From positions 1-27,761 of the forward strand of contig CBDANQ010000044.1 of the NCBI GenBank assembly GCA_965197725.1: a DNA stretch of 27,761 nucleotides. The letters are read 5' to 3'. The position numbers were made by a program. Position 1 is the stretch's first letter; each line of letters starts with the position of its first letter. This document shows, piece by piece, positions 1 through 9,000 of the stretch. This DNA is from Longimicrobiales bacterium. Lineage in GTDB: Bacteria > Gemmatimonadota > Gemmatimonadetes > Longimicrobiales > Gaopeijiaceae.

Positions 1-3000
1 GTTACTGTCCGCCATCAGAAGCCGGGGCGAGATCGACAATCCCGATGAACGAGAAAGGGTGTTGCTGCAACGCCGACAGGAACTCGCTGATGCGGCTCAC
101 GACATCCAACGATCTACCCGACGAACACTCGGTAAGAACTTGGCATCGTGGTCTCTCGGGATCGCAGGCAGCGTCTTGTCAGTGGCCGCTCGTGACCCAC
201 TCGGCTTGGTGCTCACCGCAGCTGGCGTCATTTCCGAGATGGTTCCCAGCGGCCCCAAGAGGGTTAGCGCCTATTCCTACCTGTTCGCAGCCGATCACAC
301 ATTCGGAATGTAGGTTGCGCGCATCGTACTCGCGGCGATGGCCGTCCGGCATGCGGCCGGGAACACGGGTGGGGGCCACCCGCGCCGGCTTTCGCCCGGC
401 TTCACGCTTGCGGCTTTCGGGCCAGTACGAAGTCGGAGATCTTCTGTGCGTCGGCCGCGGCTCGGCGGATCTCCCTGGGATCCTCCTTGAGGGCCGCGAC
501 CCAAACCTCGACTTAGGCGGCGCCCCAGCTCGGGTCGTGGCCTACGGCCACCCCCTCCCATGGCGCTGTCAGTCGCTGAGCAAATACTGAGTGACTAATG
601 CTCGTGTGATTGCTTGGCCGCGTGCGGAGAGCCGCCTGATGTTTTCCACCGACATCGCTGAGAAGTCAGTTGGGTAGTGGATTACCTCCTCGCGATCCAC
701 CCAGTTGGCGGGTTTAAGAGGTACACGACGGTCAATCTGGCCGAGAGCCGCGTAGATGAAGCCGTCTATGCGTCCGGACTCAGCGTGATCGTGGAGGCGC
801 GCCTTCGTCGCATCTTGAACCTTCCGCATGACCGCAGATACAACCTTCGTCATTCGCTTCGGCCAACTGCGCGGCATCGTCTCGCCAGTAAATTGCCCGG
901 CCCCGGCGTCGCTCGCGATGATGATGTCGGGGTTGTATGCGATTGCGCTGAGTAGGGAATCTCGGCCCGGTTCCATCACGCTGACCCCGAGGTTCTCGAA
1001 GACGCCGCCGTCAGTCACAATGACGCGATCCGTCGAGATTTTCCCCTGTTGCTCGAACGACCGCATCCATTCGAACGGCGGCAGGAACGGAGGATAGGCA
1101 GCCGAGGCCGCCACCGCGTCGGCAACTGGGAGTTCACTCGCGGATGCCCAACCGTATCTCCAGCTTCCGAAGCGTTCGTTGCTCATACGGAACGCGGTCC
1201 CGGTTCGAAGCTCGCACGCGTTGAAGACGATCGACTTGCCTTGGCGCGTGGGCGCATCGCAGTTCTGCGTGCCTACCGCGTCGGCGATGGCGTCGGCGAT
1301 GACGTGTGTGCGCGAGTACCGGCTTCGGATCGGCCAGGAAACGCGTGATACGGCGTCGACAGCGGGGCGGAGTGTGGGAAAGAGTGACCCGGCGAAACTA
1401 GCGATCCATGCTACCGAATCGGTCGCTAGGGTGGGCAGAGTCACAACGAGGAAGTTCCACAACAGCAGCAGAACGTGCGTGGGGTGGAGGAGTTGCTTCA
1501 GTGCGGGCCATACCAAACCGCGACGCAGGAACTTGACTGCGTTGCCGTCGATGTCGGCGAAGGGGGCTTCCGTATAGCCGAACAAACTGGTCATGACCGA
1601 TCCGCCGGAGACACCGGAGATTATATCTACTTCATCAAGGAGCTTGAGGTCTTCGAGCGCGCGTAGAGTGCCGAGATGAAACGCAACGGCGCGTGATCCG
1701 CCTCCGGACAGCGACAACCCGATGGCCTTGTCGAGTGCGGCTACCGGGGGTGGCGTTGTCAAGCCACCGCGGACGTTGATCGCCATTTCGATTCCGGTCC
1801 AGTGTGCGACTAAGTCGCGTTTCTCGAACGCGTATGCTCCCAGTTGCGGTCGCTCTCCAGCGGCATGTCCGACAATTACCATCAACTGATGCGCGCTGTC
1901 CACGTCTGCTGTGGCGAAGATGGTGCCGATGCCCGCGTAATCCGTCGCGCTGGGCTCGGCCCGGCTGACGGGATGGGAGTGCCAGGTTCCAACGTAACGC
2001 ATGATGCGGTGTGTGCGGTCTTTGTAGCCCTGGCACAGGTCGCTGGTGCCCTCCGTTCCGCAGACGAAGAGCTTGGTGGAGAACGTGCTGTCCCGCGGTG
2101 GTCCACTGACGTTGGTGATCCACGCTATCCCGAGGGTCTCGTCGAAGTCGCCGAAGAGCAATCCCCCGGTTTCGTGTTCCTCGGACCGTTCGCGTGCCCC
2201 GGCGTGAATCCAGCCGGTCATGTCCCGCCACGCGTTGGCTGACATGCGGAAGTCGATCCCGTCGGCCACCCAACGAATGTCGGGACGATACCGGATATCG
2301 TGTTGGTCGTGATCGGGCGACTGGGAGAAGAGGAAGCCGCTGGCGGTGTCGCCGGGCTCGGTTAGTCGGTCGGCCAACGCATTCAGTGCTCGGGCGGAAA
2401 GGCTGGCCACGTCGGCATGCGAGGCGACGAACGTTGGATCGGAGCATCCCGGTTCGGGCTGGCGGAGAGCTGTGCTGGCGTCGCTTGTCCAGAAGGCATG
2501 TGCCCAATTGCTCAGCCAAGGTCGATTGAGGGCCGTGAGGCCGAGACGACGAAGCACGTCGAGGGGTCCAGCTTTGTGTCCGAGTGGCGCGAGAACGGCG
2601 ACGGCGTACTGCGCTGTGGGGCTGACCATGATCGCAGCGACGGGGACACGCGGCGGGTGGTCCTTGAGTACGACCTCAAGCTTGCTTCTCACTCGTAGCG
2701 ACGCGGTCGCGTCGATAACGATATCGATGTCGGCGTCCCAGTCTGACCTGTTCAGTGTCTGGGAAATGATATTCTCTGCCTTGGTCGTCACCTTGAGGCC
2801 GGGCGCGACGGCGTGCAGCCGCCGCGCGAGTGCCTCGACCTTGGCGTCGTTGGTATCGATGGCGGAGAAGTTCTGGCGCACCAGTACACCGGGGGTGACG
2901 CGGGCTTGGTCGTAAAGCGTGAGTTCGCCGGCTCCGGCTCGCGCGAGGTGCTCCGCAATGAGGCCGCCGATCGCTCCGCAGCCCCAGAGTGCAACGCGTT

Positions 3001-6000: not shown

Positions 6001-9000
6001 GGTCACCCATGAGCAGTGCCCGGCCGCAGCCGTTCCCGGTGTAGAGTGAGATTTGGAAGGCTAGGCTGCAGTCGTTGCGGTCGCCGAAGCTGTCGTCCTT
6101 GAACGGCGCGTGCACGAACACCTCGAATACATGGGAGAGATCGTCACCGTCTAGGATCGTGACAGTTTGGCCGGGAATGGTCAGGAACTCCTCGGGGAAA
6201 CCTTCGAAATCGGGTTTTTGCAGCAATTCGTCGTAGCCGATGATACGGATCCGATGACCGCGGCCGGGGTCACCTCCCGCGTCAATGGCCCGTCAAGCAC
6301 ATGGACCGCTACCTGGAAGAGCTGGAGTGGCGGTTCAACAACCGGAACAACCCCTACATCTTCCACGACACGCTGGCCCGCATCATGAACACCGATCCGC
6401 TGGAGTACAGAGACCTGGTAGCCTAGTGTCACGTCATGCTTGTAGTGTCGTAATATAGATCGTATCTTCTCTGCATCCCCCACGCGGGAGGAATGCAGAT
6501 GAAGAAATACGTCGTGACGCTGCTCGAGGAGGAGCGCGAAGCTCTTGGCGCACTCACATCGAAGGGCAAGCACAGATCCCAGAAAATTCTCAACGCACTG
6601 ATCTTGCTGGGGTGTGATGCGGGCGAGTTTCAGACGGAGCGCTCGACGAATGAAGAGATCGCCCGCGTGCTGAAGATCAGCATGCGGAAGATCGATCGAG
6701 TGAAGAGGCGCTTCGTCGTTGACGGTCTTGAGGTGTGCCTGAACGGGACGAAGGGGAGCCGCGTCTACGCGAAGAAAGCGGACGGGGACCTTGAAGCTCA
6801 TCTGGTGGCGCTGAGTTGCAGTGACCCGCCGGAAGGCTTTGCGAGGTGGTCTCTGAGGTTGTTGGCGGACCAAGTCGTCGAGCTCGGCTACATCGACAGC
6901 GTCTCGCACGAAACCGTCCGTCGCGTTCTAAAAAAAACGAACTCAAGCCCTGGCGGCGGAAGGGATGGGTGATTCCGCCGGAGCACAACAGCAGTTTCGT
7001 CGCTCATATGGAGAGGGTGTTGGACGTCTACAAGCGACCGTTCGATCCCCTGCGTCCCGTGGTCTGCATGGACGAATCTCCCAAGCAACTGATCGCCGAG
7101 ACGAGGGTCCCGATTCCTGGGTTGCCGGGACGGGTGGCCAGACACGACTACGAATACAGGCGCTGCGGTGTATGCACGGTGTTCCTCGCAAGCGAGCCCT
7201 TGGCCGGAAAGCGCATGGTCAGGATCACGGAAAGAAGAACAAAGCGGGACTGGGCCCATTTCCTTGAGGAGATCGCAGACCAGTACGAAAGCGCGGAGAA
7301 GATCACGCTGGTCATGGACAACCTGAATACCCACGTGCCGGGATCGCTGTACGAGGCATTTGCCCCGGACAAAGCCAAGGCGCTATGGGATCGCTTCGAT
7401 TTCGTCTACACCCCGAAGCACGGAAGCTGGCTGAATGTGGCCGAAATCGAGTTGAACGTGCTCAGCACGCAGTGTCTGGACAGGAGAATCGACGACATCA
7501 ACGTGGTCCGACGCGAGGTCGAAGCGTGGCAGTCCTTCCGAGACAACAAGAACGCACGCGTCAATTGGCAGTTCACCACACCCGACGCACGGATCAAGCT
7601 CGCTCGGCTCTATCCGACATTCGATGAGTGACGCGACACTAGATAGGTTAGCGAAGTTCGGGGCCAACGCGGTCACTTGATACCCTGATTGACCAGAAGC
7701 TTGCGCGCCCGCGCAAGCTTTTCCATGAGCAGCAAGGTTGCCTAGCCCCTCGAGAAACGGTTCCCACATTTCGATATCGCTGTCCGGTAGGGGGATACCA
7801 AGTTCGTCGAGGGCAAAGGCGAGGCTCCTTATCTCTTGGGCGTGGTGTGGGTTGCTGGCAAGACCGGCGAACTGATAAAGCATGGCAGCCATCGATTCAA
7901 ACCTGTAGACCTTCCGGCGAGACCATTCCCAAACAGACCCACCCAGCCAGATTCCGCCACCCGTTGCCCCGGCAAGGGCGATGATGGGCAGCAAGGCGTC
8001 AATGAGCGGCCACATGGCTCCCACCTTGGATGCCGCTCCTTTGAAGTCCACCAACAGACCGGAGAACGCCGCCACCGTCGCGCACGGTGGCCAGAATCGC
8101 CGCCAAGCTTCGCGTCTCGTGTTCATTCCCCATGGTAACGGCCCCCATGCCTTGTGTCAATTAGATAATACCTAGGTCTCGCGTCGCTGGCTCAGGCCGA
8201 GGCGCGAATCGACGCGCTGGTGGAGGCCGGATACCACTACGTCCCCGAGTACGAAGACGATTTACCGAACCGGCGCTATTTCCGGAAACCCACCTTCCGA
8301 CCCCGCACGCATCACCTCCATTGTGTGGTGTTCGGCGGCGACTTCTGGGCGGCCCACATCGCTTTTCGTGACCATCTCAGGGCCCATCCGCCGAGGGCTC
8401 TGGAGTATGGCCGGTTGAAGCGTGAGCTGGCCCGCCTGCACGGATCCGACAAGCGAGCGTACACGGAGGCGAAGAGCCCCTTCATCGAGGCTATGCTGGC
8501 AGATGCGTCCACGGAAAACGGAGAGTAACCGCATGCCGCGACGCCGCTTCAACCGACCACGCCGGCTTCTCGATACCGATCGAGCCCCCTCTTCGCGTGC
8601 CCGATGAGCTTTCGGTCTTCCTCTTCGGCCAGTACACGCTCGAAGGTCGGAACAGCTCTCGCGTCCAGAAACTCGGACCCGAGCATCGCCACTGCCATCC
8701 GCCTCACGCGTAGGCTCTCATCGACCTCCACCCGCTCGATGAGAAGGGGCACCACGTCGACAGTGCACTTCGCGTCGGTGCAATGCTCACACGATATCGA
8801 GTGGACTGCCCAGAGCCTGGACCTTGGCCTTCGGATCGTCCAGGAGCGGTACCAGCGCATCCAGCGCCTCCGGATCGGCGATCTGATCCAGGCACATCGC
8901 ACACCAACGCCGCACCTCCAGTGAGCGTGCGCCAGGCCGTCGCGTATTGCCGGCACGGCATCGGCCCCCATCTCCACGAGCGCTAGGTAGGCGTCGAACC

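Follow-up and report, generated by a model that had tools for sequence, protein, structure and literature searches.

A patatin-like phospholipase added to the 6A-MBL system, seen in an insertion-damaged operon of a Longimicrobiales bacterium

What does a phospholipase do at the end of a polypeptide built like a ubiquitin-conjugating machinery? This question is raised by one end of the window (the whole stretch of DNA analysed, 27,761 nucleotides of contig CBDANQ010000044.1 from a Longimicrobiales bacterium), where a metallo-beta-lactamase (MBL) gene lies directly upstream of a long gene coding for E2, E1, JAB and patatin domains. The features of the locus are the following:

569..1732, minus strand: patatin-like phospholipase domain, at the C-terminus of the long gene's product (Pfam Patatin 2e-17), with GGGSR at 1691-1705, the nucleophile motif GVSGG at 1601-1615 and DGG at 1004-1012
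1808..2263, minus strand: JAB/JAMM metalloprotease domain (Prok-JAB 1.6e-8; PADLOC JAB 9e-22), with ETGG at 2162-2173 and HxH..S..D at 1940-1981
2279..3091, minus strand: E1 adenylation domain (ThiF 3e-18; best PDB match Cap2 7to3), with GCGAIG at 2966-2983 and the invariant Cys in PEPGC at 2444-2458
3092..3602, minus strand: E2-E1 linker ('wing'), aligning to the Cap2 middle region, on the 3' side of the IS256 break
3603..3610: one copy of the 8-bp target duplication made by the IS256, the other being at 5069-5076
3611..5068, minus strand: IS256-family element, 1458 bp, with inverted repeats (transposase 3661-4950)
5069..5535, minus strand: 5' segment of the long gene, with the E2 domain (Prok-E2_A 9e-18; NF058523 3e-17) and its His...Cys motif at 5227-5259
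5522..6289, minus strand: remaining two-thirds (3' side) of the MBL-fold gene of 6A-MBL, by alignment (NF058524 3e-47, 161 bits), with the tail AVGFG-RGTE at 5522-5551
6290..6426, plus strand: 3' remnant of an IS1595-family transposase, adjoining the MBL break
6424..7641, plus strand: IS630-family element (ORFs 6493-6972 and 6846-7631; HTH_32 and DDE_3)

In agreement with the preliminary description, the long gene codes for a single E2-E1-JAB-patatin chain and is split by the IS256. The two gene parts flanking the element sum to 1166 codons and are in frame, Pfam places Prok-E2_A within 5071-5535 and ThiF, Prok-JAB and Patatin within 572-3601, and P0001, a protein 96% identical to that of the window, carries E2, E1, JAB and then patatin on one polypeptide. 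Furthermore, besides the inverted repeats and the 8-bp duplication, IS-free alleles (contigs joining 3602 to 5069) were present in the four runs examined, which come from four studies. This genome contains 31 full-length IS256 relatives, the disrupting copy included. A near-identical IS256 pair in the window flanking an inversion was ruled out, each copy having its own target duplication, and a 1140-aa ORF at 569-3991 is an artefact of the IS256 antisense frame, with the identical start recurring at the second IS256 copy. PADLOC matched separate E1-E2 and JAB models only, as had been reported.

Regarding the MBL gene, it had been proposed that the IS630 cuts it. In fact, homology to the MBL stops at 6289 and is followed by ∼137 bp of the 3' end of an IS1595-family transposase (80-82% identical to two IS1595 copies that match PF12762 on contigs C49 and C57 of this genome), and the IS630, which has near-identical copies on contigs C9 and C22, is inserted at the stop codon of this remnant. 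According to the alignment, the first ∼129 residues of the window's MBL are gone, and with them the HxDxDH motif; a search of the rest of the assembly, which is 89% complete, did not recover them. The operon is a broken copy, a pseudogene that is dead in this genome. The copy previously considered intact and 97% identical (L001) does have a whole long gene, with 97.3% identity over 3213 nt and 92.3% over 999 nt, yet a transposase element of 1.6 kb interrupts its own MBL, and only two of the eight copies in the window's own family are intact. L029 and L032 are intact two-gene copies.

The GTG start of the long gene overlaps the end of the MBL gene, and such tight translational coupling would suit a guard or toxin-antitoxin logic, in which the MBL keeps the patatin inactive until conjugation or loss of the MBL frees it. 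We regard this as highly improbable, since the MBL is split by insertions in L028 and L031 and absent in L033, yet the long ORF keeps every catalytic motif in the three of them, with the caveat that polar effects of the insertions could mask toxicity.

When the top 120 homologues of the long gene were analysed, the earlier counts for ThiF and patatin (120 each), JAB (119), a length of at least 1100 aa (105), PEPGC (119), GxSGG (115) and DGG (120) were obtained again, together with Prok-E2_A in 110. Moreover, none of the nine catalytic residues varies in the 105 close or the 34 distant full-length fused proteins, two sets that share one protein. The patatin Ser and Asp are invariant in both sets, and the window has the Gly-rich loop, the nucleophile Ser and the DGG Asp. 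The cyanobacterial locus mentioned in the preliminary description was not recovered, there was no match among annotated phages, one whole copy appeared among the 80 viral loci retained out of 276, and no RNA data set was listed as containing the sequence. The best PDB match of the long protein is Cap2 7to3 (profile E 2e-23, fold E 1e-20), and the predicted structure of P0002 reached a pLDDT of 88 and a pTM of 0.82. The patatin fold matches PlpD (Z 26.5), CapE (Z 24.7) and CapV (Z 23.5), being structurally as close to PlpD as to CapV/CapE, and the ESM Atlas contributed nothing beyond the annotation 'patatin'.

To which family does this gene pair belong? The NCBIfam cut-offs are 320 bits for NF058523 (cap2_3) and 220 bits for NF058524 (MBL). 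P0001 scores 360.4 bits on the former, which is also exceeded by five of seven distant fused proteins, and the two window halves of the long gene, each alone, give 282 and 62 bits. The adjacent MBLs of L003 (293.1 bits), L032 (282 bits) and L051 (297 bits) are over the NF058524 cut-off, and the truncated remnant of the window gives 161. Because intact relatives lie above both cut-offs and correspond to type 6a among the operons of Iyer, Burroughs and Aravind 2006 (PMC1779556), the core of the patatin variant is, by sequence, the known 6A-MBL system. The previous label of 'ubiquitin-like defence variant' fits the evidence, although it missed the named core (NF058523, NF058524 and row 6a of Iyer 2006). 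As in 6A-MBL, an MBL gene directly precedes the single-chain E2-E1-JAB, and this was found in the window and in L003, L004, L006, L028-L032 and L051. The patatin is the addition to 6A-MBL: it comprises about 390 extra residues after JAB, outside the 665-position NF058523 model, whereas the triple module of row 6a ends with JAB. The patatin branch also scores 302-377 bits on NF058523 versus 558-705 for canonical Gammaproteobacterial copies, and its MBL tails are of the GFG/GYG type instead of the RAG type of canonical 6A-MBL. In the passages of the literature consulted, 6A-MBL appears as a two-gene system for which no killing step is given, and PMC13276650 credits van den Berg et al. 2024 with 6A-MBL as an anti-phage system. 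We found no patatin form of 6A-MBL in the literature searched, although the defining papers of the MBL systems and their supplements may list one.

The MBL tail is itself informative. GFG is invariant in 118 of 120 MBL homologues, followed by 3-4 variable residues. The tail previously described as AVGFG plus four residues is restricted to the close clade; fused members outside it have MBLs ending in TYG at the stop codon, DYG-RN or GFG-D. Gly is the very last residue in 15 of the 37 tails taken from the loci, whereas the other 22 have 1-6 further residues, and the tail is disordered in the predicted structure (pLDDT under 50). The Gly codons vary synonymously and the distances to the next start differ, which rules out that GFG is kept merely as a ribosome-binding site or by the gene overlap. 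The conserved terminal Gly, the 0-6 dispensable residues after it and the disorder of the tail fit the earlier suggestion of a tail trimmed by JAB, although 97 of 118 tails have another Gly at +2, which makes the cut site ambiguous in the close clade. Both JAB trimming of the tail and conjugation of the MBL are what we infer for the patatin variant.

These traits resemble those of type II CBASS, in which Cap2 conjugates cGAS via its C-terminal Gly and CapV is a patatin effector (PMC10097602), and for MBL pathways a fused E2-E1 is described that conjugates their signalling enzymes (PMC11601596). Four elements are common to the variant and type II CBASS: the Cap2-like E2-E1, the JAB peptidase, the substrate enzyme with Gly at its C-terminus and the patatin phospholipase. 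However, the variant has an MBL-fold hydrolase in place of the CD-NTase (there was no nucleotidyltransferase among the nine window ORFs scanned with Pfam), the counterparts of Cap2, Cap3 and the patatin form one chain, and no CapV model of NCBIfam or PADLOC recognises its patatin. The E1, E2 and JAB chemistry is also common to Bil and Bub systems (PMC11601596), but their E1 and E2 are separate and what they conjugate is a beta-grasp Ubl, whereas the likely modifier of the variant is a 384-aa enzyme, and at this junction the overlap of MBL and long gene leaves no space for a Ubl gene.

The single chain had been taken as the novelty, which does not hold, as members of this patatin clade frequently stand as a third gene of their own and the tree shows repeated changes between the fused and the separate state (at least six changes forced by strong branches, repeated fusion or fission being change counts on a quick LG+G4 tree). 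A second, separate patatin lineage is likewise fused, and the operons are surrounded by other defence genes (AbiE, PD-Lambda-5, Lamassu-like), two facts that would agree with the patatin being a passenger, that is, an independent defence gene fused by chance. This is very unlikely considering its linkage: of 14 strong plasmid matches to the patatin 11 were opened, 10 following MBL plus E2-E1-JAB and one ending another E1/E2/JAB/MBL cassette. In all 11, as in both strong whole matches from 401 Pseudomonadota genomes, the patatin comes immediately after the JAB or MBL gene of such a cassette. The patatins of the two cassette types are 74% identical and their MBLs have no BLAST match to each other, as expected of a swappable effector. 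The repeated fusion onto the ligase chain and the confident multi-domain model (pTM 0.82) might also point to activation of the patatin by direct contact, with the MBL covalently attached or through a change of shape on ligase loading, in analogy to ExoU and other phospholipases that ubiquitin activates. We consider this mode quite doubtful, since the patatin is often a separate gene and nearly the same one occurs with unrelated MBL and E1/E2 partners.

In loci without patatin, an adjacent same-strand ORF with at least two hydrophobic segments was found in 10 of 14 cases versus 0 of 22 patatin loci; the difference (Fisher p 4e-6) is not counted as support because relatedness leaves three independent pairs, which is not significant. 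These membrane proteins had no match in NCBIfam, nor one above the cut-off in Pfam. The other four patatin-less loci lack such a neighbour, and this, together with the usual two genes in the 6A-MBL passages of Iyer 2006, indicates that an effector gene is not universal in 6A-MBL.

With the architecture, the invariance of the catalytic residues, the tail pattern, the family membership, the patatin linkage and the IS damage established, the explanation that we favour, at slightly better than even chances, is that of a patatin-armed branch of 6A-MBL in which JAB trims the Gly tail of the MBL, E1 and E2 conjugate the MBL and the patatin is a membrane-destroying effector. In intact copies, the MBL-fold enzyme would take the place that the cyclase has in type II CBASS. 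JAB would remove the 0-6 residues after the last conserved Gly and, by analogy with Cap2, E1 would adenylate this Gly and thioesters would hand the MBL to the E2 cysteine. Upon infection, conjugation of the MBL to a target would switch the pathway on, JAB being able to reverse it, and the patatin, either fused or as a separate third gene, would hydrolyse membrane phospholipid so that the infection is aborted; in sister operons a small membrane protein would occupy its slot. The phospholipase probably supplies the cell-killing step of the variant, and we infer an anti-phage role, like the conjugation, for it.

It is conceivable, albeit unlikely, that the MBL itself is toxic and the patatin serves conjugation, either anchoring the ligase at the membrane or supplying or removing a lipid acceptor as in Atg8-like lipidation, which would make the membrane proteins of sister operons anchors or acceptors instead of killers. 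The MBL model has its nearest structural matches in the nuclease domain of ComEC (Z 22.8) and in Pce, a phosphorylcholine esterase (Z 21.2), the patatin contains a helical insert of hydrophobic character (19-residue hydropathy at least 1.5 in 97 of 116), two-gene 6A-MBL operons exist with neither patatin nor membrane protein, and lipid conjugation was raised as a possibility for cGAS (Jenson 2023). However, all fused proteins retain the complete Ser-Asp dyad, which exceeds the needs of an anchor, and the same patatin ends a cassette whose MBL has no Gly tail. We also contemplate, as a tentative idea of low probability, that 6A-MBL is a cyclase-free CBASS, in which the conjugated MBL phosphoesterase makes a new diffusible messenger that opens interchangeable effectors (the patatin clade and membrane proteins of 2-4 helices); that this messenger might derive from nucleic acid or a lipid head group is equally speculative. 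If this were true, the single E2-E1-JAB-patatin chain would combine the switch and the killer.

Under the favoured explanation, a complete phospholipase fused to the ligase or encoded after it gives 6A-MBL an effector that is easy to follow through lipid hydrolysis or membrane leak, and makes the action of the MBL, its attachment target and any signalling by it testable. For such work, intact copies with both genes, L029 and L032 among them, are to be preferred to the pseudogene of the window.

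The MBL-fold gene and the E2-E1-JAB-patatin gene (the long gene) run in this order:

5522-6289, minus strand: 3' part of the MBL-fold gene, first in the locus
5069-5535, minus strand: E2 fragment, after the MBL part
3611-5068: IS256 with terminal inverted repeats and an 8-bp target duplication, between the E2 fragment and the E1-JAB-patatin frame
569-3602, minus strand: E1-JAB-patatin reading frame, after the IS256

According to the preliminary description the IS256 splits the long gene after E2, and this is indeed what we found. The parts on either side of the element add up to 1166 codons in a single frame, and the direct joint of 3602 to 5069 was seen in contigs of 4 of 4 sequencing runs examined, from four studies, the best run being possibly the window's own sample. 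Because of these IS-free joints, the target duplication and the single frame, the long gene is genuine and its interruption recent. Counting this one, 31 full-length IS256 relatives are present in the genome, and a second copy at 19426-20883 of the window, 99.86% identical and in the opposite orientation, has its own 8-bp target duplication. An IS630 had also been said to cut the MBL, which proved incorrect: homology to the closest relative stops at 6289, where an IS1595 transposase end of about 137 bp adjoins the break, and the IS630 sits at the stop codon of this remnant. The window MBL lacks its first ~129 residues, including the HxDxDH metal motif, and the missing part was not found in the remainder of the genome assembly (89% complete). 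At 2-313 lies the 3' end of a converging gene with no match in Pfam, PADLOC or NCBIfam; ESM Atlas hints weakly at DUF6236 (12% of one cluster).

NCBIfam assigns the two genes to the anti-phage 6A-MBL system, for which a review (PMC13276650) credits van den Berg et al. 2024; it corresponds to operon type 6a of Iyer et al. 2006 (PMC1779556). P0001, the closest fused protein (96% identity with the window), reaches 360.4 on the ligase model (cut-off 320) and the MBL of relative L003 scores 293.1 on the MBL model (cut-off 220); the ligase model spans residues 73-746 of P0001 and the patatin falls past its end. Defence genes lie near some loci, which fits an anti-phage role. The domains previously ascribed to the homologues are shared as described, ThiF and patatin occurring in all of the top 120, JAB in 119 and Prok-E2_A in 110, and in the top 150 representatives (50% identity) all four domains are present in 41 (34 of them ≥1100 aa) and E2-E1-JAB only in 87. 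All 105 close and all 34 distant full-length proteins keep the E2 His/Cys, the PEPGC Cys, the JAB Glu/His/His/Asp and the patatin Ser/Asp unchanged. This invariance suggests that PEPGC carries the E1 catalytic cysteine, the profile alignment to Cap2 having ended before the motif. P0001 has Asp at the first Gly position of the patatin motif GxSGG, where Ser, Thr or Ala is common in distant members. The structure predicted for the fused relative P0002 is confident (pLDDT 88.4, pTM 0.82) and best matches Cap2, while its last domain resembles PlpD (Z 26.5, rmsd 2.9, 250 aligned), CapE (24.7) and CapV (23.5).

For the MBL model the nearest structures are the MBL domain of ComEC (Z 22.8, rmsd 3.4, 256 aligned) and Pce (21.2), both far ahead of the next match at 15.3; the last 31 residues of the model have pLDDT <50. 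GFG plus three or four variable residues ends 118 of 120 MBL homologues, the remaining two appearing frameshifted. Of 37 tails taken from the loci (omitting the duplicate L005, the IS-cut L131 and the L164 and L165 fragments), Gly is the very last residue in 15, and 22 continue past it for 1-6 residues. In most cases these residues overlap with the start codon of the following gene, and synonymous changes are seen among the Gly codons. This is the pattern expected for a conjugation handle trimmed by the JAB. It has been reported that cGAS needs its C-terminal Gly (Jenson 2023, PMC10097602), that MBL pathways stand alongside CBASS and Pycsar, and that JAB peptidases cut conjugates or pre-proteins (both Ye 2024, PMC11601596); the idea of JAB-trimmed conjugation has thus been published before for MBL operons generally.

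A plasmid search that used only the patatin as query yielded 18 records, 14 strong and 4 weak, of which 11 and 2 were inspected. Ten strong loci, from Alphaproteobacteria and Actinomycetota, have consecutive MBL, E2-E1-JAB and patatin (in three of them one gene is broken), and in the eleventh the patatin closes a different E1/E2/JAB/MBL cassette; the weak matches were a Bacteroidota three-gene operon above both 6A-MBL cut-offs and a locus without E1 or JAB. In a quick LG+G4 tree of 70 E2-E1-JAB rows with two deep branches, the patatin is fused or adjacent in 13 of 13 rows with known context in the window's branch and in 5 of 20 in the other. The patatin is a component of the system and not a curiosity, and that it should be a passenger is very unlikely. 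The fused state requires 11 changes on this tree, at least six of them forced by strong branches. In the patatin tree, 33 of 41 rows form one strongly supported group in which fused patatins are intermixed with stand-alone ones, and the patatin of three fused proteins is of another lineage. Since the patatins of loci L023 and L024 are 74% identical and their MBLs have no BLAST match to each other, the sequences suggest a module swapped between cassettes. We regard activation of the patatin by direct contact as unlikely.

Several relatives carry further cassettes. A second ubiquitin-like one (L028:2724-6402, L030:2902-6592, L023:2282-7188) comprises a peptide of 57-64 aa with the ending ...LGGEY(+tail), which may be a non-ubiquitin tag, with E2, Phd-E2, E1, JAB and a ComEC-like MBL that has no Gly tail. 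In two relatives this cassette is found immediately upstream of the 6A-MBL-patatin operon, and in a Mesorhizobium plasmid its last gene is the same patatin. Downstream of the operons there is often a second MBL gene, ComEC/Avs1a-like (L003:8820-10814, L045:3330-5089, L046, L157, L159, L161, L073), its partner being a membrane protein or, in L003, a second patatin. Locus L024 encodes, two genes downstream of the operon (7797-10436), a further patatin-like protein (879 aa, ~8 hydrophobic segments). An IMG/VR viral contig (L051:1-4618) bears a complete MBL and E2-E1-JAB-patatin operon, and at L164:2260-7680 an N-terminal fragment of a 6A-MBL-type MBL precedes what by eye is an apparent CBASS operon (effector, nucleotidyltransferase, E2-E1, JAB).

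When 401 Pseudomonadota genomes were screened using the MBL model, a query that takes no account of patatin, 10 loci exceeded the cut-off: two with patatin, six with a 2-4-helix membrane protein, one with neither and one at a contig end. NF058523 was passed by six loci in 400 scored Gammaproteobacteria genomes, none with patatin. An adjacent same-strand membrane ORF was found at 0 of 22 patatin loci versus 10 of 14 patatin-less ones (three loci with short flanks were counted; duplicates, fragments, loci with no MBL in view, one contig end and one locus that runs across a plasmid origin were not), which after relatedness leaves three independent pairs, none opposing the pattern, and is not significant. 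The membrane proteins beside patatin-less loci (150-290 aa; L045, L047, L157, L159-L163, L052) have no match among NCBIfam families, nor one above cut-off in Pfam, and are candidate unnamed effectors in what may be an effector slot shared with the patatin. For the patatin we lean towards a mechanism in which we infer all functional steps: the MBL would be trimmed and conjugated as the CBASS cyclase is, and the patatin would then kill the infected cell by membrane-lipid hydrolysis. That it instead serves a toxic MBL as membrane anchor or lipid handler is a lesser possibility. Least probable is a guard model in which the MBL restrains the patatin, as three relatives with split or missing MBL keep a motif-complete long ORF, although polar effects may mask toxicity.

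Searches of the available literature found no paper linking patatin to 6A-MBL. By term search, the main texts of PMC13276650, PMC13700489, PMC1779556 and two bioRxiv preprints do not mention patatin, and PMC13069673 has one unrelated CBASS mention. The patatin-bearing 6A-MBL is a real, widespread variant, apparently undescribed, which the defining papers or their supplements may list.

The system occurs in 8 of 401 Gemmatimonadota genomes, all within the window's family, and is intact in two. The other six (G000, G374, G133, G247, G304, G080; L028, L030, L031, L033, L034) are the window copy, two with split MBL, one without MBL and long-gene start, one frameshifted and one with patatin fragments only. 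Several of the breaks come from different IS elements, often within the MBL. The 97% identical copy (L001, titled Longimicrobiales), previously called intact, has the long gene whole but its MBL is split by a 1.6-kb transposase element. The window's copy of the patatin-bearing 6A-MBL is a pseudogene, and the system decays repeatedly in the IS-rich genomes of this family.
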